This document shows positions 7,542-54,177 of a stretch of DNA of 64,000 nucleotides, piece after piece. Location: assembly GCA_963666735.1 (NCBI GenBank), contig OY762926.1, positions 288,001 to 352,000 of the forward strand. The letters run 5' to 3'. The DNA is from Gemmatimonadota bacterium (GTDB lineage Bacteria > Gemmatimonadota > Gemmatimonadetes > Palauibacterales > Palauibacteraceae). Position 1 is the first letter of the stretch. Every line of letters starts with the position of its first letter. The translations under genes and the position numbers were made by a program. The notes under the pieces were generated by a model. It was not told the origin of the DNA, did not search any database, and saw only the letters and a list, made by a program, of their open reading frames with translations.

Positions 7542-7847
7542 TTGAACCGCGCGAAGGTTGGACTCGGGATGCTGCTGATCGCCCTGTTCGTCGTGTTGCC
7601 GCTATCGGCATCGGCGACGGAGGCCGAGACGACTGCACCCGGCACCACTGTCATCGACGTGGCGGTAGTAGGATGTGAGACTACCGTCGACGAAGGGGGC
7701 GAGATCGTTTCGATGTGCCCGTCCGGCATCATCGATGCGATTGTCGAAGAGGCGCGGGAAGCGTGTGACGGCGATGTCGCTGTCGAGATCGTCACGTGTT
7801 TTCATCTGAGCGGCGGGTGGTACAAGATTCGCGTGAACTTCGCGTGA
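7542..7847 (+). CDS. Small secreted 4-Cys protein
   Basis: Probable TTG start at 7542 after GGAGG/GAGG. Signal peptide MNRAKVGLGMLLIALFVVLPLSASA. The mature part has 4 Cys. Confidence 0.7.
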   Translation: MNRAKVGLGMLLIALFVVLPLSASATEAETTAPGTTVIDVAVVGCETTVDEGGEIVSMCPSGIIDAIVEEAREACDGDVAVEIVTCFHLSGGWYKIRVNFA

Positions 7848-7854
7848 ACATCGA

Positions 7855-8934
7855 GTGCGTGCGATAGCGATGCTGCGCGCATCAATGGCGCTTGTCTCCT
7901 TGGTCTGGGCGAGTTCCGCTACCGCCCAGACCAAGGAACTGCAGCTGGTTGAGGAGCTGCGGTTGGGCAGTATCGATGGATCGAAAGCCGATATGTTCGG
8001 CGACATTCATGATATGGCAGTCGATCCCGATGGTCGCATCTACGTGATCGATACGGCCATGAAGAGCGTACGGTTATTCGGCCGCGATGGACGACTCATT
8101 CGTCAGTTCGCGCCCAAAGGAGATGGGCCGGGTGAGCGGCGGCACCGGCGGATGTCGTCATTTTCTGGTCCCGCCCGCGTGACTTGGGACAAGAACCGCG
8201 GCTGGCTCTGGATCGATGATGGATATCAGTTCCAGATAATGGATTCATTGGGTGTGGAGTACAGGCGGGAGGTGCGAACCGGAACTCTGAATGAGAACCC
8301 GAATGATCCAGTCGGAAAGCTGATGGCTGTCGATACGCAGGGTCGCATCTACGAGTATCAACGTGACTACCAACCCGGAGCCTCCGGGGATTCATCATTC
8401 TCATACATCGCTCGTGGCGTGGCCACACCGGACTACGGAACGAGATATCGCGATACGCTTGTGATCGATGCGCGGCTTCTTGTGACCGAAGGTACGCAGA
8501 CCAATATGCGAACGGTTGGTAGAGTACTGGCAACCGTGGCAATGACAACCAAACGGCCGGAGCGTGCTGAACGAATATGGACGGTCTCACCCGATGGTGC
8601 GATCTGGATCGCCGATAGCCAGGAACGCCGTATCCATGAACTAGGGTTTGCGGGTGATACGATTCGTACGCTCGATGTTGGTTTTGGCATAGCTGAGCTT
8701 GACGTGTCGCCAGAAGGCTGGGTCTGGGTTCGGTACGCGACCGAAGGAGAATCGACCTGGGATCTGATCGACGACTGCGGAGTGTCGCGCGGTTCCGTTT
8801 CGGTCCCGCAACCTGTTTCCGTAACGGAGGTTGGTTCCGGCGGCACCGTTCACGTGGTGTCGGCGGACGAACTCGACATCGAGTACATCATGCGCCTGCA
8901 ACTCAAGGGCGAGGCCGTCACGCGGATCTGCTGA
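7855..8934 (+). CDS. Secreted 6-bladed beta-propeller (NHL/TolB-like) protein
   Basis: Signal peptide, then EELRLGSIDG...FGDIHDMAVDPDGRIYVID...GDGPGE. Visibly more AT-rich than flanking genes. Confidence 0.85.
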   Translation: MRAIAMLRASMALVSLVWASSATAQTKELQLVEELRLGSIDGSKADMFGDIHDMAVDPDGRIYVIDTAMKSVRLFGRDGRLIRQFAPKGDGPGERRHRRMSSFSGPARVTWDKNRGWLWIDDGYQFQIMDSLGVEYRREVRTGTLNENPNDPVGKLMAVDTQGRIYEYQRDYQPGASGDSSFSYIARGVATPDYGTRYRDTLVIDARLLVTEGTQTNMRTVGRVLATVAMTTKRPERAERIWTVSPDGAIWIADSQERRIHELGFAGDTIRTLDVGFGIAELDVSPEGWVWVRYATEGESTWDLIDDCGVSRGSVSVPQPVSVTEVGSGGTVHVVSADELDIEYIMRLQLKGEAVTRIC

Positions 8935-38517: not shown

Positions 38518-41487
38518 CTAGAACGGGCTGAAGTCCCAGCGCATCCGCGCGAGCACCACGCGGCCGATCGCCGGCGCCCCTACCATGCTCTGGTAGGCCT
38601 TGTCGAAGACGTTGGACACGTCCACCTGGAACCAGAGGTCCTCGTACCCGGGGATACGGAAGCCGAAATTCGCGTCCAGCGTGGTGATAGCGTCGAGATC
38701 ACCCACCCACGGGCCGGAGTTGAACGGAAAGCCGTTCTGCGCCCGGAACCGGAGGCCCCCGTTGACTCCTGAATCGTCGTTCCGGTACGTGAGCGACGCG
38801 GTCCCGCGCACCGTCGGCGAATTCAGCGACACCTCGCTCAGGAGTTCGCCTGCGGACTCGAAGGTGTTTCGGTTGATGAAGGAGAGGGATGTGGCCATCT
38901 CCAGTTGATCGCTGAGGAGGAAGCCGGCCCCCAATTCGCCCCCTATCACGTCGAACCCCCCGGCATCCTGGTATCCGGCCACCATCGCCGCGGCGGTGCC
39001 GCCGGCGCTTGTCGGGGTCACGGCCCCCAGCGGAATCTTCGCCGCCTCGGTCGCGATAAGCTGCGCCGTCCCCAAAGCTGCCGCCTCGTTCGGGAACACC
39101 ACGCCGACCAGCTGTTGGAACACTCCCGACAGATATGTCCCCAATTGCGGGCCGTTGAGGAAGACGTGCGGCGAGATCAGCCGGAGAGGCGCGATGTAGC
39201 TGTCGTAGCGCGTGAACCACGCGTTGGCCCCGACGGAAACGTTGTCTCCGAATACTCCCTTGTACCCGAACTCGAACGTGTTGCTGACCGTCGGCCCCAG
39301 CGCCTCGATGTCCTGGAGATTCGCGAGGTCGACGGCCTCGCAGAACGGGGGCGCCACGCAGCCCGGCGGCGGCGCGCCACCGCCGGCGACCTCCGTATCG
39401 AGCAGTAGCGCCAGGATGCCCACCTGGTCCCCCGATGGGACGGGGATCAGAGGCGCCAGCGGAGCCAGCTGCGGATAGGCGACGCCGAGAAGATTCACCG
39501 CCGTGGCCCACAACTGCGCCGTGGTCGTTGGCAGGAACTCACGGGGGCTGCCTCCCAGCAGCACGTTGAACGGCGACATGTGCATGGGGGTCCCGTTCTC
39601 CCGCATGTACGTGTAACCGTTGCCGCCCGAGCCGGTGGCCCGCAGGTCGTAGAAGAACGGCGTGCCCGTGATGGGGACCGTGCCTCCCGAGATGTCCAGG
39701 AACTGGTTCGTGGACGTGGGCGTCGAGAACGCCCGGTTGAAGGTCAGCCGGAACGAGTTCGAAGCGTCCGGCTTGAAGACCAGCGCGGCGCGCGGCGAGA
39801 AGACCGGATCCGTCAGGCTGCTGTTGTAGTCGTACCGAAAGGCACCCGTGAGATCGAGTTTCGGGCTCACCGCCCACTCCCACTGGAGGTAGCCGCCGAT
39901 CTCCGTCGTCTGGTCGTCGTTCTCGAACTGTCCGTTGATGGTCCCCTTGCTGTCCGGGTTCGTCCCGAGGTAGTCGACCCCGTAGATGAGCCGGTGCGCG
40001 GAGCCGAGCCGAGACTGGTGCTGGAGCTGTCCCACGAACAGGGAGGAGTTGTCGAAGATCGGGCGGCCCGAGCGGAGGAGGAAGGCCTCGTCGTTCGTGT
40101 TGTAGTTATAGAACGCCTGCGCGAACAGATCCTTGTGCCGGAGACGCGCCTGCCCGTAGGTGACGCCCCAGTTGGTGACGTTGGATGCACCAAGCCCGGT
40201 GAGTTCCGTCGCCTGGGCGGCGACGTTGCGCCCCGCCGCCAGAACGAGCGATGTCCCCGGCGACGGCTCGAAGTCCATGCGCGCGTCCACTCCCCAGTTC
40301 CTGTGCCCGTCGTCGCGCCCCATCGCCACGTTCCGGGCGGACTGCGCCAGCACGCTCTGATCCGCCGGATTCGTCAGGTCGAGCCCCGAGGCGAACGGCT
40401 GGCACGCGGGGGAGGCCGGATCGAATCCGGCTCCGATGCAGGCTTGTCCCGCGGCCGCCGCCCGCGCCTCGACCAGGTCGTTGAAGACGTACTCGGTCGC
40501 ATCGAAGTACTGGCCCGAGATCTTGAAGCCGAACTTGTCGCTCGGAGCCACCGCGATGCGCCCGTCGAACTGGAACAGCCCCGCGTCTCCACCCTGGATG
40601 GGACCGCTGCCGAGCCCCGCATCGTCGCCCTGCTGACGGAGGCCGCCGCCCACCGAGAAGCTGGCTCCCGGCGAGCGAATCGGCGACTTCGTGATGTAGT
40701 GGACAACGCCGCCCGCCGCGTTCGGTCCGTAGAGGGCCGATCCCGGGCCCAGCACGGTCTCGACGTGATCCGTGTCGAGGTCCGACACCGGGTTCAGGTA
40801 GAAGATGTTCACGCGGAGCGACGGCACGCGCGCGATCCGGTTGTCCGTCATGAACAGCGTGCGGCTGGAGAAGATGTTGTTGAATCCGCGCAATACGGCG
40901 GTGCGGCCGCGGATTCCCGTCCGAGCCACATCCACCCCGGGCTGGTGCTCCACGTGCTCGATCGGAGACGTCACCTGGCGTTCCTCGAGATCGCGCGTCG
41001 AGACGACCTCGACCGCCGCCGGCGCCTCCAGCACCTTCTCGTGCGTGCGGGAGGCGGTGACGGTCAGCGGGTTGAGTTCGAACGACTGTTGCGTCATGGT
41101 CGCCGACACGAACGTCAGCGCGTCGGCCGGAACGGACCGCGCCTCCGCGATCACCCTCTCCCAGCCGGGGGAGGTGAAGCGGACCGAAAACGTCCCGGCC
41201 GGCACGCCGGTGATCTCGTACTCCCCCCCAGGCCCCGTTATTGCCCCCGCCACGACCGCGCCGCCCTCGCCCAGCACTTCGACCCGCACGGCGGCCAGCG
41301 TCGCACCCGTCGCCTCGTCCGTCACCAACCCGGCGATCCGGCCCTGGGCCCACGCGGCGCCCGGGAGTGCCCCGAACGCGATGATCGCCGCCGGAAGAAG
41401 GGTTCCCCACCTGATCTTGTGACCGAAACGAACTCCGAATCCCGTCATCGCGAACGCCTCCCGCGTCTCGGTTGAACCTGCCGGCAT
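38518..41487 (-). CDS. TonB-dependent receptor
   Basis: Carboxypeptidase-regulatory-like N-domain, plug LTVTASR...ETVLGPGSALYG and barrel ending NVFDKAY...RWDFSPF. Start may be later. Confidence 0.95.
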   Translation of the reverse strand: MPAGSTETREAFAMTGFGVRFGHKIRWGTLLPAAIIAFGALPGAAWAQGRIAGLVTDEATGATLAAVRVEVLGEGGAVVAGAITGPGGEYEITGVPAGTFSVRFTSPGWERVIAEARSVPADALTFVSATMTQQSFELNPLTVTASRTHEKVLEAPAAVEVVSTRDLEERQVTSPIEHVEHQPGVDVARTGIRGRTAVLRGFNNIFSSRTLFMTDNRIARVPSLRVNIFYLNPVSDLDTDHVETVLGPGSALYGPNAAGGVVHYITKSPIRSPGASFSVGGGLRQQGDDAGLGSGPIQGGDAGLFQFDGRIAVAPSDKFGFKISGQYFDATEYVFNDLVEARAAAAGQACIGAGFDPASPACQPFASGLDLTNPADQSVLAQSARNVAMGRDDGHRNWGVDARMDFEPSPGTSLVLAAGRNVAAQATELTGLGASNVTNWGVTYGQARLRHKDLFAQAFYNYNTNDEAFLLRSGRPIFDNSSLFVGQLQHQSRLGSAHRLIYGVDYLGTNPDSKGTINGQFENDDQTTEIGGYLQWEWAVSPKLDLTGAFRYDYNSSLTDPVFSPRAALVFKPDASNSFRLTFNRAFSTPTSTNQFLDISGGTVPITGTPFFYDLRATGSGGNGYTYMRENGTPMHMSPFNVLLGGSPREFLPTTTAQLWATAVNLLGVAYPQLAPLAPLIPVPSGDQVGILALLLDTEVAGGGAPPPGCVAPPFCEAVDLANLQDIEALGPTVSNTFEFGYKGVFGDNVSVGANAWFTRYDSYIAPLRLISPHVFLNGPQLGTYLSGVFQQLVGVVFPNEAAALGTAQLIATEAAKIPLGAVTPTSAGGTAAAMVAGYQDAGGFDVIGGELGAGFLLSDQLEMATSLSFINRNTFESAGELLSEVSLNSPTVRGTASLTYRNDDSGVNGGLRFRAQNGFPFNSGPWVGDLDAITTLDANFGFRIPGYEDLWFQVDVSNVFDKAYQSMVGAPAIGRVVLARMRWDFSPF

Positions 41488-41578
41488 CCCTCGGTTACAC
41501 GTTAAGCCGAACCCCGGTTTCTGTCAGCTTGGACTCGGGCGCGCACGGGCCGCCCACCGCCTCGGAGCACCCGGCTCC

Positions 41579-43621
41579 TCAGCGCACCCGGCCGAAGCGA
41601 ACGTCGCGCGTGCGACCGTTGGCGACATAGAAGCCGATGACCTGACCGTTGCGGTCCCGCTCGAAGGCGAACGACAGGCCGCCGCCCGAGAACTGATCCT
41701 CTTCTCCGGGTTCGAGTTCCGCCCGGTCGAGCCGGCGCTGGTGCAGGACGAGGGCTCCGTCCTCCACCGCGAAGGCGTAGAAGGTCTCCAGTTCCTCGCT
41801 GAAGAAGCGGCCGGCGAAGTCGGCCAGCTCCGCGGGCTCTGGCTCCCATGCCTCGGCCTCGTCGCCCTCGAGGCGCGTCGCGTGGTTGTCCCCGTTCTGG
41901 TGCAGCGTGAGTCCTTCGACGTCCCCCTCGGCATCCCGCAGGAAGGTGACGGAAGCCTCGACCGCGAGCAGGCGGAAGGTCGAGTCGGACGTGGGGACGA
42001 TCTCGAGCCGCTGCTGGCCCGTGGCCTGCGTGTAGAAAGTGTCGTCTTCCCGCGTGAAGGCGAGGATGAAGTTCGGCGCCGCGTCGAGCGCGTACCGGCC
42101 GGCGAACTCGTCGAAGGCCTCGGGGTCGAAATCTTCCGGATCGAACTCCTCGTCTCCTCCCGCGGCGGCGTCTTCCTCCGCCTCCATCGCGTCCTTGAAG
42201 AAGGCCGCGGCGAGTTCGTACGCGACGCCGCTGTTGAACTGCGCGTGGTTGCTCTGCGTGGTGAGACCGGCGTTGATCTCGGGGAAATAGACGAACATCG
42301 AGCGGTGCGCGACATCGGCCCCCCCGTGGCTCACCCGCTTGAGCCCACGCTGCTCGTCGACCGAGAGCCCGTACCCGTACCCCGTCTCCTCCCCGTCGTT
42401 GAGCACGAAGGAGGTCGTCATCTCATCGATGCTTTCGCGCGTGCCGACGCGCGGGTTCGCGTAGTTCTCGGCCCACGTCTGCAGGTCGCCGATGGTGCTG
42501 TAGATCGCGCCCGCCCCGACCGCGCCGCCGAGGTCGCCGATCTGCCGGTATCCATCCGGGCCCGGCGTGTAGCCCTCGGACATGTTCGGGACGATGTGTC
42601 GCGTGGAGGGCCGCACCATGGTCCCGTCCATCCCCAGCGGCCCGAACACGTTCTCCCGCATGAAGACGGGGAAATCCTGCCCGGAGGTCCGCTCGACGAT
42701 CACCGCCGCGAGGCCGTACGCCGTGTTGTTGTAGTTCCACTCGGCGCCGGGCTCGTTCTGGAGGGCCGGCTGCCGCTGAACGATGTCGATGAGTTCCGAG
42801 CGGTCGATCCAGTCGCCGTGGTCGAGGCGGCGGCCCGTCATCCGCAGCAGGTTCAGAAACTCGCGCAGTCCCGACGTGTGCGTGACCAGGTGCTTCACCC
42901 GAATGGTGTGCTCGAACTCCGGAAGTTCGGGGATGTGCTCACGGATGTCGTCGTCGAGCGAGAGGAGTCCGCGCTCCGCCTGCAGCATGATCGCGAAGGC
43001 GGTGAACTGCTTCGAGGTCGAACCGATGTTCGTCCGCGTGTCCTCCTCGAAGGGGAGGCCGTAGGCGAGGTTCGCCATCCCGTAGGTCTTCGAAAAGAGC
43101 GTGCGGCCGTCGCGCCACACGCGGACCGCGCCCCCCGGAGAATGCGATCCGTCGAAGCGGGACATGACCTGGTCCGCCAGTTCCTCCGGGTCCGTCGCGA
43201 CCGGTTCGCGCCGCAACAACGTGATCTCGTAGCGCCCGCCGGCTTCCGCATCGTCTCCGCCGACGAACAGCTCCAGGGTGTGGACGCCCGCGCCGGCCGT
43301 CCGCCCGCCGAAGCGTTGGACGCCGCGCCCCAGCCCGCCGAAGCGTCCGGCCTGCGTCCCCTCCGGGTCGAGGACGCGCGCGGTCACGTCGACGGAAATC
43401 TGGTTCACCTCGCCGAGGACGAAGTCGTTCTCGTCCGTCTCGATCGTGTAGCGCGCCGTATCGCCCGCGGCCAGCGTGCCCGCCAGCGTCCGGCCGACCT
43501 CGAGTTCCGTGCTCTGAGCCGCGATCCCTCCGGCCGAGAGAAGGGCGAGAAGTCCGGTGCGGAGCGCGGAACCAACGGAACCAAGCGGGGGACGAGGGCG
43601 GCGACGGAAACGCGTGTTCAT
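41579..43621 (-). CDS. Serine hydrolase (beta-lactamase family) with PPC-like N-domain and DUF3471-like C-domains
   Basis: IGSTSKQFT (SxxK), HLVTHTSGL, WNYNNTAY and SHGG motifs. Confidence 0.92.
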   Translation of the reverse strand: MNTRFRRRPRPPLGSVGSALRTGLLALLSAGGIAAQSTELEVGRTLAGTLAAGDTARYTIETDENDFVLGEVNQISVDVTARVLDPEGTQAGRFGGLGRGVQRFGGRTAGAGVHTLELFVGGDDAEAGGRYEITLLRREPVATDPEELADQVMSRFDGSHSPGGAVRVWRDGRTLFSKTYGMANLAYGLPFEEDTRTNIGSTSKQFTAFAIMLQAERGLLSLDDDIREHIPELPEFEHTIRVKHLVTHTSGLREFLNLLRMTGRRLDHGDWIDRSELIDIVQRQPALQNEPGAEWNYNNTAYGLAAVIVERTSGQDFPVFMRENVFGPLGMDGTMVRPSTRHIVPNMSEGYTPGPDGYRQIGDLGGAVGAGAIYSTIGDLQTWAENYANPRVGTRESIDEMTTSFVLNDGEETGYGYGLSVDEQRGLKRVSHGGADVAHRSMFVYFPEINAGLTTQSNHAQFNSGVAYELAAAFFKDAMEAEEDAAAGGDEEFDPEDFDPEAFDEFAGRYALDAAPNFILAFTREDDTFYTQATGQQRLEIVPTSDSTFRLLAVEASVTFLRDAEGDVEGLTLHQNGDNHATRLEGDEAEAWEPEPAELADFAGRFFSEELETFYAFAVEDGALVLHQRRLDRAELEPGEEDQFSGGGLSFAFERDRNGQVIGFYVANGRTRDVRFGRVR

Positions 43622-43703
43622 GTGGGTAACTCCGGGGACGGGTTCGATGGAGCGCGCGACAGACGGTAAGGAAGCCGGACTCGATCGGGCAACCGCTCGA
43701 CAA

Positions 43704-43774
43704 GGCCAATACCGGGCCAATACCGGGCCAGTATCGAGCCAATACCGGGTCGATACGGCCGGCTGCCAATACCG
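43704..43774. repeat. 11-bp tandem repeat array (GGCCAATACCG), 5 tandem + 1 offset copy
   Basis: GGCCAATACCG GGCCAATACCG GGCCAGTATCG AGCCAATACCG GGTCGATACGG, then GCCAATACCG at 43765. Confidence 0.85.
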
Positions 43775-43850
43775 GTTTCGACGTCCGCGGACGTACAATC
43801 AGACGGCGTTCGCGGCTCGACCCAGTTCCGCCCCAATTGCGAAGGATCCG

Positions 43851-44018
43851 ATGAAAGTGATGCTCATCGACGAGACCGCCGGTTCCGGCGGAGACATGCT
43901 GCCGTGGATGTTCCGCAAGCTCGAGGTGGAACAGTGGCCGGCCGAGGTGATCGCGGGCGTCGACCCGCAACTGGAGAAGGCGATCGAGGTCGTGCTGGAA
44001 CAACTCGGGGGGGGTTGA
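43851..44018 (+). pseudogene. Remnant of tricorn-like S41 peptidase C-terminus with internal deletion
   Basis: KVMLIDETAGSGGDMLPWMFRKL joined directly to EVEQWPAEVIAGVDPQLEKAIEVVLEQL. The usual intervening G-R-TWGG...ENxGVxPD segment and the whole N-terminus are absent. Confidence 0.75.
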
Positions 44019-44024
44019 TCGCGA

Positions 44025-45098
44025 TCAACCTTCGTCCGCGATCGTGAACAGCCTGAGGCTCCCCGGGTACATCTGCCAGGCCGTATCGTCCAGCACGCGG
44101 CTGCTCCACGCCTCCTCGTGGAGCGGATCGCGCCACAGCACCGTGGTCCGCCCCCCCTCTTCGTAGGGCAGGAACAGGCCGTCCACCGGATCGATCGCCG
44201 GAACGAGCCACACTCCCCGCTCTCCGGCCCGCATGTCCTTGAACCCGGGCGCCCTGACGCCGGGGCGCCCCTCGACGATCCGCGCCATCTCGGCCCGCGT
44301 GCTCTCGACCAGCCACCGGGGTACCGGGATGCGGGAGATGCGGACGATCCTGGGCGGCTCGTACTCCAGCTCGATTCGCCACAGGATCGTCTCCATCGCG
44401 TCGAGGAGGACGACCTCGCCCTTCCGCCCGCCCGACACCACCAGATTAAGGGTGCCTATTCGGCTCCTCCAGGACGCCTCGTACGCCAGTTCCGCGGGAA
44501 TCGGAACCTCGCTCGGGATGTTCAGGGGCCGGTCCCCGGCCGCGTACGCCGTGAGCAGGAAGCCCGGTTCAACGCTCGGTCCGACCGGACCGAGGACATG
44601 GTCGACACCGAATCCGGCCGCGGTCGAGATCACCGGAAGCCGCACGGTCCGCGGCTCGCCCTCTCCGGGAGGGAACCGCACCAGCGCTCCACGGCCGAGG
44701 TCGCCCACCCACAACGCGCCGTCCGGTGCGAACTCGACGCGCATCGGGGATTGAAGAACGTCGGGATCCCCCGGTCCCGAGGGCCCGCCCAGGGTCGCGA
44801 TGTGCTCCCCCTCGGAGCGGAACAATTGGACCCGCCCCGCCACGCGGTCCGCGATCGCGACCGTGTCCCCGAACAGATCGAACCCTCGAGCCGTCTCCAG
44901 GAAGAGGTCGTCCGAGAGGACGCCGCCGGGCGGCAGTTCCCGCACCAGCTCCCTCACCACGACGCTCCTGCTAGAACCGGCATCGGGTCGGCCGCCGGCG
45001 CCACCCTCGCCGCATGCCCACGTCGCCCACGCCGCCGCGACGAGGCCAAGCCGGTGACGGAGGAGAGATGCACCTGCTCCCCGGGTGTCGCTCAACAT
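44025..45098 (-). CDS. Beta-propeller lipoprotein, type A copy 1
   Basis: Lipobox-like TWAC. NHL-like blades GDTVAIADRVAGRVQLF...LGGPSGPGD...PMRVEFAPDGALWVGD. The start overlaps the stop of the upstream Cys-rich gene. Confidence 0.85.
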   Translation of the reverse strand: MLSDTRGAGASLLRHRLGLVAAAWATWACGEGGAGGRPDAGSSRSVVVRELVRELPPGGVLSDDLFLETARGFDLFGDTVAIADRVAGRVQLFRSEGEHIATLGGPSGPGDPDVLQSPMRVEFAPDGALWVGDLGRGALVRFPPGEGEPRTVRLPVISTAAGFGVDHVLGPVGPSVEPGFLLTAYAAGDRPLNIPSEVPIPAELAYEASWRSRIGTLNLVVSGGRKGEVVLLDAMETILWRIELEYEPPRIVRISRIPVPRWLVESTRAEMARIVEGRPGVRAPGFKDMRAGERGVWLVPAIDPVDGLFLPYEEGGRTTVLWRDPLHEEAWSSRVLDDTAWQMYPGSLRLFTIADEG

Positions 45099-45559
45099 TC
45101 GTTCAACGTAGTACAGGGATCGGGAGCGGGACCATAAATCGTAATCGCCGAACTGCAGCCGCCGACGGTCGTAAATTCCTCGATTCGACCATCGGCCATC
45201 TCATAAGCGCAGGCACAGACCTCGCAGCTCAAGATGCCAAGGGTGTACGGCACCGGGACATCCATACAGATCCCGCCCACGCGGACGCCACTATCGGGGT
45301 TATTGGGGCCGCCCGAGAGATATGGGGGACAGCCGCCCTGAGCGGCCGCCGCTCCGAGGTCGGCCTCCTCCGCGTGGGCATGTCCGAGCGGCGCGAAGGG
45401 AGCAAGCGCGGACGTGATGGAGAGGAGGAGGGCGGTCGCCACGACTCGGCGGAGCCGCTCCGCACGCGAAGTGCGTGGCGAGATCGCCGAGACTGCAAGA
45501 ACCCCTCTGAGCGCTGCCGAGTGGAACACGACGAAGGAAAACGGCGTGAAGCGGAGCAT
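45092..45559 (-). CDS. Small secreted 8-Cys protein, type A copy 1
   Basis: RBS GGAGG. Signal peptide ending HAHA. Mature EEADLGAAAAQGGCPPY...ICMD...SCEVCAC...GGCSS...DPCTTLNEC. Confidence 0.8.
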   Translation of the reverse strand: MLRFTPFSFVVFHSAALRGVLAVSAISPRTSRAERLRRVVATALLLSITSALAPFAPLGHAHAEEADLGAAAAQGGCPPYLSGGPNNPDSGVRVGGICMDVPVPYTLGILSCEVCACAYEMADGRIEEFTTVGGCSSAITIYGPAPDPCTTLNEC

Positions 45560-45615
45560 GCTTGCCTCCCGGGTCTGAAGTGTGCGTTGCCCGGGACTCG
45601 CTCCAAAATGGCTAC

Positions 45616-45728
45616 CACATCACTCGCCGTTTCGCAACCTGTCGAGTCGTGGTGTGGTGCCACCCCGACCTGGTATCGCCCGAGCGTCATGCCCTCCGGT
45701 CCGCCGGTGTCGGCGCTAACGCTAGCCG
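45616..45728. repeat. 113-bp non-coding element X, copy 1
   Basis: Matches 47273..47385 with about 5 mismatches. Its first 22 bp also occur at 49053..49074. Confidence 0.9.
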
Positions 45729-45888
45729 AACTGCCAGATCTGTCATCGGGAGGGATCCGTGCGGCCGATGTCCCTCCTCACCTATCGCGACACGCGCCGC
45801 TGGGCGTCGCGCATGATGGAGCTGGTCTCGAAGCGGCTCATGCCCCCGTACCACCTCGACACGGGCGTCGGAATCCAAGACATCAACG
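45729..45888 (+). pseudogene. Fragment of a cytochrome c/copper-monooxygenase-family gene
   Basis: NCQICHREGSVRPMSLLTYRDTRRWA...LMPPYHLDTGVGIQDI aligns with ACVRCHRDNGVAPMPL...AMPPWYVEKDIGIQHF of the gene starting at 62828. Confidence 0.75.
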
Positions 45889-46093
45889 ATCACACTCCAT
45901 CGTGGACGCGCGTTTCCCGATACGCAACGGGCCGTATGCGGGGGGGCGGGTGTGCTGCGGCTGAGGCGGCCTTCGGGCGTTGGAGGGACGGAACCGGTCG
46001 GCTTATCCCGTCGCCGGTGGATACCGGACATCAGCCTTGCGGGCGGACCCGGCCCTCATGGAGCTGCGGGGCGGGCGGTCCGGTCGATTGCGT

Positions 46094-47170
46094 TCAGCGT
46101 TCGTCCGTGACCGTGAACCGCATGAGACTTCCCGGGAACATTAGCCAAGCCGTGTCGTCGTCCAAGATGCGGCTGCTCCACGCCTCCTGGCGCTGCGGGT
46201 CGCGCCACAGCACAGTGGCCCGGCCATCCTCCTCGTAGGGCAGGAATACCCCGTCCACCGGATCAATCGCCGGGACGAGCCACACCCCCCGCTCTCCGGC
46301 CCGCATGTCCTTGAACCCCGGCGCGCTGACACCGGGGCGGCCCGTGACGCGCCGCTCCATATCGGCGCGCGTGCTCTCGACCAGCCAATCGGGTACTGCG
46401 ATGCGGGAGATGCGAACGATCCTGGGCGGATCGTACTCCAGCTCGATTCGCCACAAGATCGTCCGCATCCCGTCGAGGAGGATCACCTCGCCCTCCCGTT
46501 CGACCGACATCACGACATGCAGGGGGCTTATTCGGACTACCGGTCCAAACGCCAACTCCTCGGGAAGCGGAACTTCGTTCGGGATGTTCAGGGGCCCGTC
46601 CGGCAACCCGTACGCCGCAAGCAGAAACCCCGGCTGTGCGCTGAGCCCGATGGCGCCGAGGACATGGTCGACCCCGAATCCAACGGCCGTCGCCATCGCC
46701 GCTCCCGGAAGCCGCGCCGTCTGCGGCTCGCCGCCTTCAGAAGGAAACCGCACGAGCGCTGCCCGCCCGGGATCGCCTACCCATAACGCGCCGTCCGGTG
46801 CAAACTCGACGCGCATCGGGGACTCAAGGATCTCGGGATCCCCCGGCCCCGGAGGGCCGCCCAGGGTCGCGATATGCTCCCCCGACGAGCGGAACAACTG
46901 GACCCGCCCCGCCAAGCGGTCCGCGATCGCGACCGTGTCCCCGAACAGATCGAACCCGTCAGCCGTCTCCAGGAAGAGGTCGTCCGAAAGGACGCCGCCG
47001 GGCGGCAGTTCCCGCACCAGCTCCCTCACCGCGACCTGCCTGCTCGAATCAACATCAAGCGGGCTGTCGGCGGCGCCGTCGCCGCACGCCCAGGTCGTCA
47101 ACGCCGCCATCCCGACGAGGCTAAGCTGTCGGCGGAGGACAGGCGCGCCTGTTCCCCGGATGTCACTCAA
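46094..47170 (-). CDS. Beta-propeller lipoprotein, divergent type B
   Basis: Intact 358 aa paralog of 44025..45098 with a conserved N-half and C-end and a divergent middle. TTG start overlaps the TGA of the upstream remnant. Confidence 0.85.
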   Translation of the reverse strand: MSDIRGTGAPVLRRQLSLVGMAALTTWACGDGAADSPLDVDSSRQVAVRELVRELPPGGVLSDDLFLETADGFDLFGDTVAIADRLAGRVQLFRSSGEHIATLGGPPGPGDPEILESPMRVEFAPDGALWVGDPGRAALVRFPSEGGEPQTARLPGAAMATAVGFGVDHVLGAIGLSAQPGFLLAAYGLPDGPLNIPNEVPLPEELAFGPVVRISPLHVVMSVEREGEVILLDGMRTILWRIELEYDPPRIVRISRIAVPDWLVESTRADMERRVTGRPGVSAPGFKDMRAGERGVWLVPAIDPVDGVFLPYEEDGRATVLWRDPQRQEAWSSRILDDDTAWLMFPGSLMRFTVTDER

Positions 47171-47268
47171 CAGGCGTTCTTCCCAGTGCAGGGACCGGGA
47201 GCGGGACCCTGAATCCTAATCGTCGAACTGCAACCGCTGCTCGTCGAAAAATACTCCGTTGTGCCGGA
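47167..47268 (-). pseudogene. Orphan C-terminal remnant of a type B Cys-rich protein
   Basis: Manual translation SGTTEYFSTSSGCSSTIRIQGPAPGPCTGKNAC* aligns with type A DGRIEEFTTVGGCSSAITIYGPAPDPCTTLNEC*. Preceded by an in-frame TAA, no start codon. Confidence 0.85.
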
Positions 47269-47272
47269 TTAA

Positions 47273-47385
47273 CACATCACTCGCCGTTTCGCAATCTGTC
47301 GAGTCGTGGCGTAGTGCCACCCCGACTTGGTATCGCCCGAGCGTCATGTCCTCCGGTCCGCCGGTGTCGGCGCTAACGCTAGCCG
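47273..47385. repeat. 113-bp non-coding element X, copy 2
   Basis: Matches 45616..45728. Confidence 0.9.
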
Positions 47386-47435
47386 GAAGTCGGCGGCTGG
47401 GGCCCTCCCGCGCCGCCATCGGGGTTTGATCGCGA

Positions 47436-48509
47436 TCAACCTTCGTCCGCGATCGTGAACAGCCTGAGGCTGGCCGGGTACATCTGCCAGGCCGTGTCGT
47501 CCAGCACGCGGCTGCCCCACGCCTCCTCGTGGAGCGGATCGCGCCACAGCACCGTGGTCCGGCCCCCCTCTTCGTAGGGCAGGAACAGGCCGTCCACCGG
47601 ATCGATCGCCGGAACGAGCCACACTCCCCGCTCTCCGGCCCGCATGTCCTTGAACCCGGGCGCCCTGACGCCGGGGCGCCCCTCGACGATCCGCGCCATC
47701 TCGGCCCGCGTGCTCTCGACCAGCCACCGGGGTACCGGGATGCGGGAGATGCGGACGATCCTGGGCGGCTCGTACTCCAGCTCGATTCGCCACAGGATCG
47801 TCTCCATCGCGTCGAGGAGGACGACCTCGCCCTTCCGCCCGCCCGACACCACCAGATTAAGGGTGCCTATTCGGCTCCTCCAGGACGCCTCGTACGCCAG
47901 TTCCGCGGGAATCGGAACCTCGCTCGGGATGTTCAGGGGCCGGTCCCCGGCCGCGTACGCCGTGAGCAGGAAGCCCGGTTCAACGCTCGGTCCGACCGGA
48001 CCGAGGACATGGTCGACACCGAATCCGGCCGCGGTCGAGATCACCGGAAGCCGCACGGTCCGCGGCTCGCCCTCTCCGGGAGGGAACCGCACCAGCGCTC
48101 CGCGGCCGAGGTCCCCCACCCACAACGCGCCGTCCGGTGCGAACTCGACGCGCATCGGGGATTGAAGAACGTCGGGATCCCCCGGTCCCGAGGGCCCGCC
48201 CAGGGTCGCGATATGCTCCCCCTCGGAGCGGAACAATTGGACCCGCCCCGCCACGCGGTCCGCGATCGCGACCGTGTCCCCGAACAGATCGAACCCTCGA
48301 GCCGTCTCCAGGAAGAGGTCGTCCGAGAGGACGCCGCCGGGCGGCAGTTCCCGCACCAGCTCCCTCACCACGACGCTCCTGCTAGAACCGGCATCGGGTC
48401 GGCCGCCGGCGCCACCCTCGCCGCATGCCCACGTCGCCCACGCCGCCGCGACGAGGCCAAGCCGGTGACGGAGGAGAGATGCACCTGCTCCCCGGGTGTC
48501 GCTCAACAT
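47436..48509 (-). CDS. Beta-propeller lipoprotein, type A copy 2
   Basis: Differs from copy 1 at two residues near the C-terminus (WGSR vs WSSR, YPAS vs YPGS). Confidence 0.85.
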   Translation of the reverse strand: MLSDTRGAGASLLRHRLGLVAAAWATWACGEGGAGGRPDAGSSRSVVVRELVRELPPGGVLSDDLFLETARGFDLFGDTVAIADRVAGRVQLFRSEGEHIATLGGPSGPGDPDVLQSPMRVEFAPDGALWVGDLGRGALVRFPPGEGEPRTVRLPVISTAAGFGVDHVLGPVGPSVEPGFLLTAYAAGDRPLNIPSEVPIPAELAYEASWRSRIGTLNLVVSGGRKGEVVLLDAMETILWRIELEYEPPRIVRISRIPVPRWLVESTRAEMARIVEGRPGVRAPGFKDMRAGERGVWLVPAIDPVDGLFLPYEEGGRTTVLWRDPLHEEAWGSRVLDDTAWQMYPASLRLFTIADEG

Positions 48510-48970
48510 TCGTTCAACGTAGTACAGGGATCGGGAGCGGGACCATAAATCGTAATCGCCGAACTGCAGCCGCCGACGGTCGTAAATTCCTCGATTCGAC
48601 CATCGGCCATCTCATAAGCGCAGGCACAGACCTCGCAGCTCAAGATGCCAAGGGTGTACGGCACCGGGACATCCATACAGATCCCGCCCACGCGGACGCC
48701 ACTATCGGGGTTATTGGGGCCGCCCGAGAGATATGGGGGACAGCCGCCCTGAGCGGCCGCCGCTCCGAGGTCGGCCTCCTCCGCGTGGGCATGTCCGAGC
48801 GGCGCGAAGGGAGCAAGCGCGGACGTGATGGAGAGGAGGAGGGCGGTCGCCACGACTCGGCGGAGCCGCTCCGCACGCGAAGTGCGTGGCGAGATCGCCG
48901 AGACTGCAAGAACCCCTCTGAGCGCTGCCGAGTGGGACGCGACGAAGGAAAACGGCGTGAAGCGGAGCAT
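48503..48970 (-). CDS. Small secreted 8-Cys protein, type A copy 2
   Basis: Identical to copy 1 except FVAS vs FVVF in the leader. Confidence 0.8.
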   Translation of the reverse strand: MLRFTPFSFVASHSAALRGVLAVSAISPRTSRAERLRRVVATALLLSITSALAPFAPLGHAHAEEADLGAAAAQGGCPPYLSGGPNNPDSGVRVGGICMDVPVPYTLGILSCEVCACAYEMADGRIEEFTTVGGCSSAITIYGPAPDPCTTLNEC

Positions 48971-49000
48971 GCTTGCCTCCCGGGTCTGAGGTGTGCGTTG

Positions 49001-49039
49001 CCCGGGACTCGCTCCCGGGACTCGCTCCCGGGACTCGCT
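49001..49039. repeat. 13-bp VNTR (CCCGGGACTCGCT x3)
   Basis: Three perfect copies here, one copy at the equivalent site 45590..45602. Confidence 0.95.
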
Positions 49040-49466
49040 CCAAAATGGCTACCACATCATTCGCCGTTTCGCAATACCGGCGAGTCGGAGTGTGGGGAGG
49101 CTTCGGAACAGTCCTCACGATCCCAGATGACGATAAGGGTGCTGGTGCACCGGTGCGCGACCGGGGCGCTCTCGTCGCGGAGACTGTCCCGAAAGCTCAA
49201 GGAGCCCGAGGCGTGGATCCTTCCTGTTGCGCGACCGGGGCATCGCGCCCTTTGCGACCCAAATGTGCGGCACCCTTCGCGCCCCTGGCCGGTCGTCTAC
49301 CTGATCGTGCTACACCCAATCTGGTGCCCGCTCGAACGCCCCGCGGTCCGTGCTGTGCCGGCTAACGGCCAGACTGCTCCCCCCGCAGGCACCCCAGCGG
49401 CAGCTGGCGGGATCGACCGTGATCGTGACTGGCTCCACGTCCGGGCACCCGTCCCCCGCCGGGGGG

Positions 49467-53538: not shown

Positions 53539-53557
53539 GTGATTACTTTGTACCTAC
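53539..53557 (+). promoter_or_regulatory. Putative mazEF operator/promoter
   Basis: AT-rich imperfect palindrome GTGATTAC-TTT-GTACCTAC about 45 bp upstream of the antitoxin start. Confidence 0.45.
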
Positions 53558-53602
53558 GGCGACGAACTACTCGAGCCGGCAACGGTGGCGGAGCGAAGCG
53601 GA

Positions 53603-53854
53603 ATGGAAACGCGGCTCATTCAGATCGGAAACTCCCGCGGGATCCGAATCCCGAAAGCCCTGGTCGAAGCGGCCGGGCTCGATACGCCGCTGCGGCTGAA
53701 GGTTGTGGATTCGGGTCTGCTCATCGAACGCGCGGGCAACCCCAGGGATGGTTGGGCGGAGGCGGCGAAAGAGCTTCGCGACCGTGGTGAGAGCGGACTC
53801 CTGGATGACCCGTCGCCAACGGCCTTCGATGCTTCCGGCTGGGAGTGGGAGTGA
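53603..53854 (+). CDS. mazE: AbrB/MazE-family antitoxin
   Basis: METRLIQIGNSRGIRIPK...PRDGW...WEW. Confidence 0.9.
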   Translation: METRLIQIGNSRGIRIPKALVEAAGLDTPLRLKVVDSGLLIERAGNPRDGWAEAAKELRDRGESGLLDDPSPTAFDASGWEWE

Positions 53855-54177
53855 CGGAACCGCGACGCGGTGACGTGTATCTGGTTGCCCTCGACCCTAC
53901 CCTCGGCTCGGAAATCAAGAAGACCCGCCCATGCGTCATCGTCTCTCCCGATGACCTGAATCCGACGCTCGGCACCTATCTCGTGGCGCCGATGACCACG
54001 GGCGGCCGTGCCTATGCCTTTCGTATCGCTTGCCGGTTCCGGAACAGAGACGGCTTCGTCGTGGCCGATCAGTTGCGCACCGTCGGCCGCGTCCGCCTGA
54101 TCCGACGAATCGGCCGGTTATCTCACGACGCCATGACCGAGGCTCTCGACGTGCTTCAGCGCATGTTCGCCCCTTGA
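53851..54177 (+). CDS. mazF: PemK/MazF-family endoribonuclease toxin
   Basis: RGDVYLVALDPTLGSEIKKTRPCVIVSPD...VAPMTT...DQLRTV. GTGA overlap with the antitoxin. Confidence 0.92.
   Translation: MTEPRRGDVYLVALDPTLGSEIKKTRPCVIVSPDDLNPTLGTYLVAPMTTGGRAYAFRIACRFRNRDGFVVADQLRTVGRVRLIRRIGRLSHDAMTEALDVLQRMFAP

Follow-up and report, generated by a model that had tools for sequence, protein, structure and literature searches.

The window, a stretch of 64,000 nucleotides, carries on its minus strand an array in the order pepA1, propA1, pepB stub, propB, pepA2, and propA2, and these coordinates bear out the cassette order given in the initial annotation. The first gene, pepA1 (48503..48970, minus strand), encodes a 155 aa protein with a long signal peptide, a short acidic linker, and an 8-Cys beta-hairpin domain. 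Its upstream region (48971..49095, minus strand) contains tandem copies of a 13-bp repeat and forms the left end of a duplicated segment. It is followed by propA1 (47436..48509, minus strand), encoding an NHL-type beta-propeller lipoprotein of 357 aa whose lipobox, at Cys29, is non-canonical; the start of this gene overlaps the pepA1 stop. A 116-bp promoter-side piece (47270..47385, minus strand; 95% identical to 45613-45728) is fused directly to the pepB stub (47167..47268, minus strand), after which lies propB (46094..47170, minus strand), an intact orphan gene for a B-type propeller lipoprotein of 358 aa. The pepB remnant noticed earlier is thus present, reduced to the final 33 codons, 3 of them for Cys, of a peptide gene of the B type, with neither start codon nor signal peptide. 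Then come a piece from a second chromosomal site, its downstream flank (45884..46093), which represents the upstream region of a PQQ-dehydrogenase-type gene and is 93% identical to G013, a 170-bp internal gene fragment from the other side of that site (45724..45893, plus strand; weak cytochrome c match), and another copy of the 116-bp piece with the pepA2 upstream region (45560..45728, minus strand). The products of pepA2 (45092..45559, minus strand) and propA2 (44025..45098, minus strand) each differ by 2 residues from the first copies, both differences in the peptide lying in the signal peptide. Outside the module, the flank contains a tricorn (S41) protease gene reduced to its 3' stub (43853..44010, plus strand); the gene is whole at the same site in G008. 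The reported overlap of propeller start and peptide stop, TGTTGAG, was seen at all three array junctions; among 11 distinct 8-Cys junctions compared, nine had TGTTGAG and two TGCTGAG.

The two A cassettes differed at only 12 of 1575 bases (99.2% identical DNA) and their mature peptides were identical; therefore, they represent a duplication, not a set of three diverged cassettes. Of the polymorphic array described initially, the array itself and the divergence of propA from propB (73-74% identity) are real, and the A pair is a near-identical duplicate. The two spacers, previously treated as equivalents, are not: the 116-bp piece is common to both, and in the second it is accompanied by flanking DNA of another chromosomal site, approximately 370 bp in length. 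The promoter role of the piece was read by eye; a scan with sigma-70 and terminator consensus sequences returned no sites. The 45724..45893 fragment joins the 45884..46093 flank at a microhomology of 7-10 bp. An assembly artefact was ruled out because single contigs cross both seams: the one at 45884-45893 was bridged in runs of six studies and that at 47269 in runs of three (one of these may be the source sample). Located between the A copies, propB and the pepB stub were brought in from the second chromosomal site. Most simply, a circle from that site was integrated by a single crossover into a resident A pair. The propB product grouped with propellers of G002, G007, G016, G023, and G043.

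The eight cysteines ascribed to the peptide were located at positions 77, 98, 112, 115, 117, 135, 149, and 155 of pepA. The long signal peptide has an invariant RR at 37-38 and is likely cut after residue 63, a site judged by eye. From Cys77, the 8-Cys beta-hairpin domain comprises 79 aa with 9 acidic and 2 basic residues, and the net charge of the mature protein is -7. The hairpin itself was 19-21 residues long in the eight members of this form measured, with four Cys inside it. The GG before the first Cys (in the AAAAQGG/C segment, initially described as acidic and pro-like) was not conserved across the family; this and the hydrophobic signal peptide ruled out a GG-leader RiPP or double-glycine bacteriocin. 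No peptidase-containing ABC exporter or tailoring enzymes were conserved among the neighbours, as assessed by eye and by clustering. The structure model of pepA reached a pLDDT of 67.5. In a fold search with this model against 48,161 chains, the best Z was 5.0, not above background, and the absence of aerolysin-type chains from the list does not count against such a fold; several of the weak matches were cystatin-type inhibitors (Z 4.1-4.8, background level). ESM Atlas gave no usable match for pepA.

Judged by sequence, pepA is a disulfide-rich branch of an undescribed family of Gemmatimonadota found in 31 of the 401 genomes searched. Its members (65-184 aa, plus one 345-aa fused read) are built from a small head, containing two invariant Cys, together with a single variable beta-hairpin; the folds of both hairpin and propeller are predicted. 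Among the genomes searched, the 8-Cys form occurred only in the source genus. Hairpin length varied from 8 to 44 residues family-wide, and two members had hairpins of just 8-10 residues, too short for membrane crossing. In the 2-Cys relatives, the hairpin consisted of 45% Gly/Ser/Thr and showed a polar/hydrophobic alternation of 1.27 vs. 0.75 ± 0.05 in shuffled sequences, with none of 1000 shuffles as high. Its length was a multiple of four in 34 of 45 cluster-length events (9 of 16 under the strictest clustering). In the longest hairpins, hydrophobicity was mainly close to the tip, and many 2-Cys members had aromatic C-terminal residues. Two-faced and lengthening by four residues, the 2-Cys hairpin appears to resemble the stem of a beta-barrel.

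The earlier remark that no named family was recognised for the peptide was supported by profile, fold, and literature searches. None of 40 family members matched a Pfam or NCBIfam profile, including PF14055 and those of aerolysin / ETX-MTX2, and no PDB chain was found under E 1 in a sequence search; one match to a prolactin receptor, at E 1, was regarded as chance. Four giant proteins among 49 profile matches carried Calx-beta or cadherin repeats and were discarded, their similarity being compositional. One 2-Cys member was assigned by ESM Atlas to two unnamed clusters at 0.77-0.78. PADLOC (five proteins), a phage search with one 2-Cys member, and two metagenome scans gave no matches. The family was not described in the literature searched, which comprised sources other than subscription journals and supplements, and the relevant terms were absent from a paper on Palauibacterales (PMC10469786).

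The propeller fold of the partner is suggested by sequence matches to NHL and Pizza proteins, eukaryotic NHL domains among them, by a model with a pLDDT of 65 (N-terminal third poor), and by weak Pfam matches of relatives. PF17170 matched none of 28 close propellers and four of eight partners of 2-Cys relatives, at E 6e-5 to 5e-3, all below the cut-off. A Cys after the N-terminal hydrophobic stretch was retained in 17 of 17 real partner families; apart from Asp, Arg, Gly, and Pro positions of the repeat type, these families shared no candidate catalytic set. The proposed central clustering of propeller differences was confirmed in 10 propellers, where nonsynonymous variation peaked at residues 196-215 (pN 0.256 vs. 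0.035-0.175 in the other 14 windows of the protein). The source genome contained 80 propeller-like ORFs, and approximately 15 other propellers followed Cys-rich proteins of other kinds, as judged by eye. Complex prediction for mature pepA with propA gave a score of 0.01, which is no answer and counts neither way.

Peptide and propeller genes were strongly coupled. A propeller lipoprotein gene lay directly 3' of 54 of 62 family genes, and the remaining eight were directly 3' of one. In the genus, close propellers (E 1e-25 cut) were present in 13 of 36 genomes. The 15 loci comprised 11 with an intact peptide gene upstream, three with the peptide broken or missing, and one with both genes broken; an intact peptide with a lost propeller was found at none, though these are very small numbers. 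Orphan propellers were retained in G000, G013, and G014. The pair is thus conserved, as initially proposed, and close propellers without the peptide are the minority. In G042, an intact 2-Cys peptide gene precedes a deleted propeller gene, and an intact propeller gene is situated just upstream. The 8-Cys module occurred in about a third of genus genomes, at several unrelated sites, and was decayed in the closest relative, G017. A gyrB-adjacent copy was present in most genus genomes fetched, and the locus was also found in sponge metagenomes. No RNA dataset was listed as containing it, which says nothing about whether it is expressed.

The peptide is under purifying selection. Of the three refuting conditions set out initially, two failed to refute. 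The mature peptide diverges more quickly than the propeller (dN/dS of 0.20/0.43 vs. 0.12/0.37). The positive selection sought on the propeller was not detected, dN/dS exceeding 1 in no region. Pair distances were unrelated to gyrB (rho -0.10 and -0.17). Co-divergence had been taken as a sign of cognate toxin/immunity pairing. However, distances of the cleaved leader followed those of the propeller as well as distances of the mature peptide did (rho 0.86 vs. 0.84), so co-divergence and tree congruence are no evidence of cognate binding. For the joint travel of the pairs independent of gyrB, linkage alone suffices as an explanation.

Our interpretation shifted from a ligand and receptor towards a membrane-active oligomer because the peptide belongs to the wider 2-Cys long-hairpin family. 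We tentatively favour, at somewhat less than an even chance, the reading that the peptide is secreted and attacks membranes and that the lipoprotein provides cognate immunity. A small protein would be exported via Sec or Tat and oxidized in the periplasm, and its beta-hairpin would bind or insert into competitors' membranes. The hairpins would oligomerize into a beta-barrel, a step best supported for the 2-Cys relatives; the 8-Cys form, with its short, Cys-stapled hairpin and hydrophobic tip, may first have to be unfolded or reduced, or may require a partner. The propeller lipoprotein would shield the producer by capturing the hairpin protein, probably with specificity around residues 196-215, and the orphan propB would be kept for immunity to the B-type peptides that related strains produce. 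This reading is favoured by the gene order and the retained N-terminal Cys, by a patchy, mobile module with pair distances independent of gyrB, by the faster evolution of the peptide and the single hypervariable propeller segment, and by the three loci where the propeller outlasted the peptide. The two-faced, Gly/Ser/Thr-rich hairpin of the 2-Cys relatives with lengths in fours and the precedents of BcdI and aerolysin-type toxins also argue for it. It is weakened by the short 8-Cys hairpin with four Cys and the two 8-10 residue hairpins, by the acidic mature peptide, unlike cationic antimicrobial peptides, by the eight intact peptides without their own propeller and the deletion in G042, and by the small numbers behind the 3:0 asymmetry. 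The dN/dS values below 1 everywhere and the congruence explained by linkage also speak against it, and four-residue steps would be expected of any two-faced hairpin, including that of a soluble sheet or filament. With approximately 15 propellers following other Cys-rich proteins, such pairing does not depend on pore formation. Finally, immunity proteins known up to 2012 included no beta-propellers (PMC3482391).

Since a register-preserving, two-faced hairpin suits any barrel or sheet, the peptide could instead be a building block of the cell's own envelope, an oligomeric outer-membrane beta-barrel or surface filament, with the propeller as a dedicated chaperone, assembly factor, or cap. The stop/start overlap, suggesting a fixed product ratio, the acidic protein, the aromatic ends of many 2-Cys members, and the gyrB-adjacent copy agree with this. 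We nevertheless consider it unlikely: the 8-Cys module is patchy, site-shifting, and decayed in G017, orphan propellers are retained without a substrate, and hairpin lengths are widely spread. Less probable still, the peptide could act as a signal or identity tag released by the cell, with the propeller as its surface or periplasmic receptor, in quorum-type signalling or kin recognition. Such a role would suit the allelic types seen for both genes, the single variable propeller segment, and the occurrence of related propellers after many dissimilar Cys-rich proteins within a single genome; signals from other strains could be sensed by an orphan receptor. But by-eye inspection of 32 neighbourhoods, each 12-15 kb long, showed no kinase, regulator, or transporter conserved next to the module, and a ligand needs no long Gly/Ser/Thr hairpin in strict register.

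The confinement of the 8-Cys form to the source genus among the genomes searched, the sponge metagenomes, and the eukaryotic NHL domains among the propeller matches brought up a host-directed effector or adhesin, its extra disulfides suited to the sponge matrix and the propeller serving as a carrier or display scaffold. It appears improbable, given that the pair also occurs in four other families of the phylum (their habitat being left out of account), that only about a third of genus genomes have the 8-Cys module, and that the NHL similarity is a fold effect. Most improbable is an enzymatic propeller that the hairpin protein would inhibit or regulate by placing its hairpin in the active site. 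EatA is a mycobacterial five-bladed propeller glycosidase with catalytic Asp residues, and the EatI hairpin blocking this toxin is a precedent (PMC13444075), to which the cystatin-type fold matches might be added. These matches are at background level, however; the partner families lack a conserved candidate catalytic set, and the gene lost is the peptide, not the propeller.

If the membrane-attack reading is true, the module is a candidate competition system for Gemmatimonadota, and its peptides would be very small beta-barrel pore formers with natural four-residue stem steps, useful for studies of how barrels assemble. The many six-bladed propeller lipoproteins encoded after small Cys-rich proteins would then also have a first assigned function. 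A broader proposal, which we regard as rather unlikely, is that minimal beta-pore formers of a new class are at work, in which a disulfide-closed head of 65-90 residues bears one register-conserved hairpin that oligomerizes into a barrel of tunable length, and the six-bladed propeller lipoprotein restraining it acts as an immunity scaffold of general use, re-targetable to many exported but unrelated mini-proteins of Gemmatimonadota. Should the toxin role prove wrong, the pair is still a compact module, hitherto undescribed, that lends itself to direct testing, its natural A and B alleles allowing cognate and non-cognate pairs to be compared. On sequence evidence, the peptide-propeller module duplicated here recurs across the phylum and fits no described family.

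Small NVEALA proteins (PF14055) of Bacteroidota adjoin six-bladed DUF5128 propellers (PF17170), and a small exported Cys protein ahead of a six-bladed propeller lipoprotein is likewise predicted here. The link made earlier is only an analogy. PF14055 was unmatched; searching the literature for NVEALA or DUF5128 terms retrieved no paper. Polymorphic toxin systems include orphan toxin-tip/immunity cassettes. The array shares with them the partner gene directly downstream, allelic types, and inter-locus recombination (PMC3482391), as well as the retention of orphan partners and a C-terminal stub beside an intact partner gene. Unlike polymorphic toxins, the 155 aa peptide is a single small domain, not a large multidomain protein with trafficking repeats and a swappable C-terminal toxin domain. 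The pore element of aerolysin-type toxins is an amphipathic hairpin with Ser/Thr-rich flanks, according to PMC4179158; such a hairpin is predicted in the 2-Cys relatives, and in the 8-Cys form of the window it is short and Cys-stapled. In contrast to aerolysin / ETX-MTX2 proteins, the family appears to have no room for a beta-sandwich core or receptor domain and has a disulfide-closed mini-head and a dedicated partner lipoprotein. EatA-EatI also combines a propeller protein with a hairpin-bearing partner, in roles that would be reversed here (PMC13444075). The CDCLs of Bacteroidota are large two-component toxins of the CDC fold, whereas the peptide of the window, known here from sequence, has approximately 80 mature residues; its size and the profile scans excluded CDC-like toxin domains, and the word "propeller" is absent from PMC11169675. 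According to that paper, BcdI is an operon-encoded surface lipoprotein blocking an antibacterial beta-barrel pore former, and the CDCL/BcdI system resembles the present module in having a secreted protein with a hairpin/barrel element, a lipoprotein in the same operon, mobility, and a propeptide-like segment (PMC11169675).

The genes of the array lie on the minus strand and begin with pepA1 (48970–48503), which encodes the 8-Cys peptide, followed by its partner propeller lipoprotein gene propA1 (48509–47436). A 116-bp piece separates propA1 from a 33-codon stub of the second allelic type, pepB (47268–47167), and its propeller gene propB (47170–46094). After a spacer of about 530 bp, the A type recurs as pepA2 (45559–45092) and propA2 (45098–44025). 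The eight Cys residues claimed in the initial annotation are present in the peptide, and every propeller gene overlaps, at its start, the stop of the gene before it. The two A copies are identical except at 12 of 1575 bases, with 2 + 2 residue changes in the proteins and none in the mature peptide; propB is 73–74% identical to propA. The array is real, since single contigs span both seams in sequencing runs of several studies: 45884–45893 in X1, X4, X5, X10, X6, X11, and X12 (six studies) and 47269 in X1, X4, X5, and X6 (three studies); one of these runs may be the source sample. Several runs holding the locus are labelled sponge metagenome, and the named homologues belong to Candidatus Palauibacter (Gemmatimonadota).

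Two compared genomes, G008 and G017, carry the module at the same site, flanked by a serine-hydrolase/tricorn region and a YbjQ-like gene. At a second site (G013, G014, G020, and G051), it stands in front of a PQQ-dehydrogenase-type gene, with a gene weakly matching cytochrome c on the other side in all of these except G013. This second site is empty in the genome of the window, with no module. The propB–pepA2 spacer contains both second-site flanks in permuted order, joined at 7–10 bp of microhomology. In the simplest history, a circle or tandem unit off the second site, carrying an A pair and an orphan B propeller, would have recombined into a resident A pair. The local array, initially taken for a polymorphic array of cassettes, is an ordinary recombination product.

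Downstream of the array, the tricorn protease gene, whole in G008, is reduced to a 3′ stub (43853–44010, plus strand). The adjoining genes for a TonB-dependent receptor and a beta-lactamase-fold serine hydrolase (38518–43798, minus strand) are syntenic in G008 and G017 and missing at the other sites of the module. A 13-bp repeat occurs in a few copies upstream of pepA1 (49001–49041); ahead of the G051 peptide it has expanded to about 30 copies in tandem (L076:6690–7107). The 89 bp at 49117–49204, with 74% identity to nine further places in the genome, are probably a worn insertion sequence end. Two short genes at 53543–54177 (plus strand) resemble a MazEF/PemIK-type toxin-antitoxin pair.

A single-sequence search yielded 16 relatives of the peptide (48–100% identity); all share M1, RR37–38, C77, and C98, and another five Cys are nearly invariant. 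When 1.84 billion representatives were searched with a profile, 49 matched; 45 of these were small proteins, mostly with just two Cys, and four were giant repeat proteins, which were left out of the family. The common layout is a signal peptide, a Cys-x-x-Tyr-Ile-Ser-Gly-Gly head, a variable insert, Gly-x-Tyr-x-Met-x-Asp-Gly, and Cys. That the 8-Cys branch is homologous to the 2-Cys forms holds on independent evidence: the hhalign probability is 96.5–96.7, and all 11 of the 8-Cys sequences score 11.8–26 bits, against at most 6.4 for 220 shuffles. Family members P0075, P0080, and L119, with intermediate Cys numbers (3, 4, and 6), show that the hairpin is stapled step by step; in the 3-Cys forms, one Cys is unpaired and could link subunits. 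Among 401 genomes from the phylum, the family occurs in 31, chiefly in taxa f1 (15/30) and f6 (11/70), with weak matches in f3 and f4. No Pfam or NCBIfam model matched more than one of 40 members scanned. Among eight close genomes (28 non-independent pairs), dN and dS were 0.20 and 0.43 for the mature peptide, which is therefore encoded by a real gene under purifying selection, and 0.12 and 0.37 for the propeller; the peptide evolves faster.

A gene matching the propeller profile lies directly 3′ of 54 of the 62 peptide genes in 52 fetched stretches and the window region, 16 loci outside the genus included. The other eight are second peptides directly behind a propeller; two of these sit at the end of a contig. 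Those downstream genes served as seeds for the profile, so the independent support is that the close family has NHL/Pizza sequence matches, five of eight distant partners have PF17170 or NHL matches below the cut-off, and the structure model is an all-beta repeat. The lipoprotein Cys is kept in 17 of 17 real partner families (an eighteenth table row, a wrong frame, was left out), and no conserved catalytic set was found across them. In 36 genus genomes there are 15 close propeller loci. The peptide is intact at 11 of them, and three are orphans, namely propB of the window, G013 (internal stop in the peptide), and G014 (no peptide trace); in G017 both genes are broken. G042, of the 2-Cys branch, is a counter-example to the orphan-propeller pattern.

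The genome of the window contains 80 propeller-like ORFs, about 15 of them, judged by eye, behind other small Cys-rich proteins. In the window itself, a further propeller-like ORF at 7837–8934 (plus strand) lies downstream of a small exported protein of another kind, with 3 Cys. At G000:C1:3512351–3515044 (L126), gyrB and a glycerol-kinase-type gene flank a 2-Cys long-hairpin member and the two propellers behind it; most of the fetched genus genomes have this site occupied, frequently in the order peptide-propeller-peptide, which hints at two-component action. At G000:C1:2571674–2575167 (L127), a 2-Cys member with a signal peptide seemingly shortened relative to family protein P0062 precedes two near-identical propellers, likely a further orphan case. 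At G000:C1:2671575–2673920, a distant hairpin protein with multiple Cys is accompanied by a propeller and a presumably YIP1-like multi-pass membrane gene, and a similar membrane gene lies 3′ of the propeller at 2866453.

Peptide and propeller move as a unit, because their distances correlate with each other (rho 0.84 for the mature peptide, 11 pairs) while neither tracks the single marker gyrB (rho −0.10 and −0.17). The congruence proposed for testing at the outset is seen in the distances; it is no evidence of binding, and binding-driven coevolution is not demonstrated by this test because the leader correlates equally well (rho 0.86, 11 pairs). Positive selection on the propeller, also proposed for testing, appeared in no region. 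Propeller variation peaks at residues 196–215 (pN 0.256, pS 0.313), partly helix in the propeller model.

In the AlphaFold2 model of the peptide (85-residue construct, pLDDT 67.5), the insert forms a hairpin (strands 20–32 and 41–51) followed by two shorter strands; the best match in a structure search with it was at background level (Z 5.0). Across 68 distinct inserts of at least 16 residues from 2- and 3-Cys members, hydrophobic/polar alternation in the flanking 8 residues was 1.27 vs. 0.75 ± 0.05 in shuffles, and 0 of 1000 shuffles reached it. These inserts are 45% Gly, Ser, and Thr, and their lengths (16–44) cluster at multiples of four: 0 mod 4 in 34 and 0 or 3 mod 4 in 41 of 45 events at 60% clustering, and 9 and 12 of 16 events, respectively, at 45%. 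Alternation and length steps of four mean that both hairpin faces matter. The longest inserts have their hydrophobic face chiefly close to the tip; the 8-Cys forms fall in the short class (19–21 residues, four Cys at the base, hydrophobic tip), and two family members have a hairpin of only 8–10 residues.

We tentatively favor, at somewhat less than even confidence, a module in which the small exported protein would attack membranes and the propeller lipoprotein would serve as its cognate immunity partner, because gene order, coupling, mobility, faster effector evolution, orphan partners, and the barrel-like hairpin fit this reading. The hairpin fits a barrel stem on a polar stalk, of the kind described for aerolysin-type hairpins with Ser/Thr flanks (PMC4179158), but it also fits a soluble sheet or filament. 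BcdI, a lipoprotein described in PMC11169675 as blocking a bacterial beta-barrel pore, provides a precedent. Against the attacker/immunity reading stand the short, stapled hairpin of the window's own peptide, the acidity of the protein, some peptides without their own propeller, the lack of positive selection in any region, and a 2012 survey (PMC3482391) that found no propellers among immunity proteins.

A barrel or filament of the cell's own envelope with the propeller as chaperone is unlikely. That the pair comprises a signal and its receptor is distinctly unlikely, and a host-directed effector very unlikely. An enzyme with its inhibitor, by analogy with EatA-EatI (PMC13444075), would be highly improbable.

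The family and the module are real and undescribed; their function we infer. The PF14055/PF17170 gene neighbourhood and the orphan-cassette concept serve as background to the comparison. No published description of the family was found in the main texts of openly accessible journals, and a term search of PMC10469786 found the family not described there. By the features testable here, the module is no member of the aerolysin, CDCL, polymorphic-toxin, NVEALA, or GG-leader families, and in its way of working it would be closest to effector/immunity pairs.
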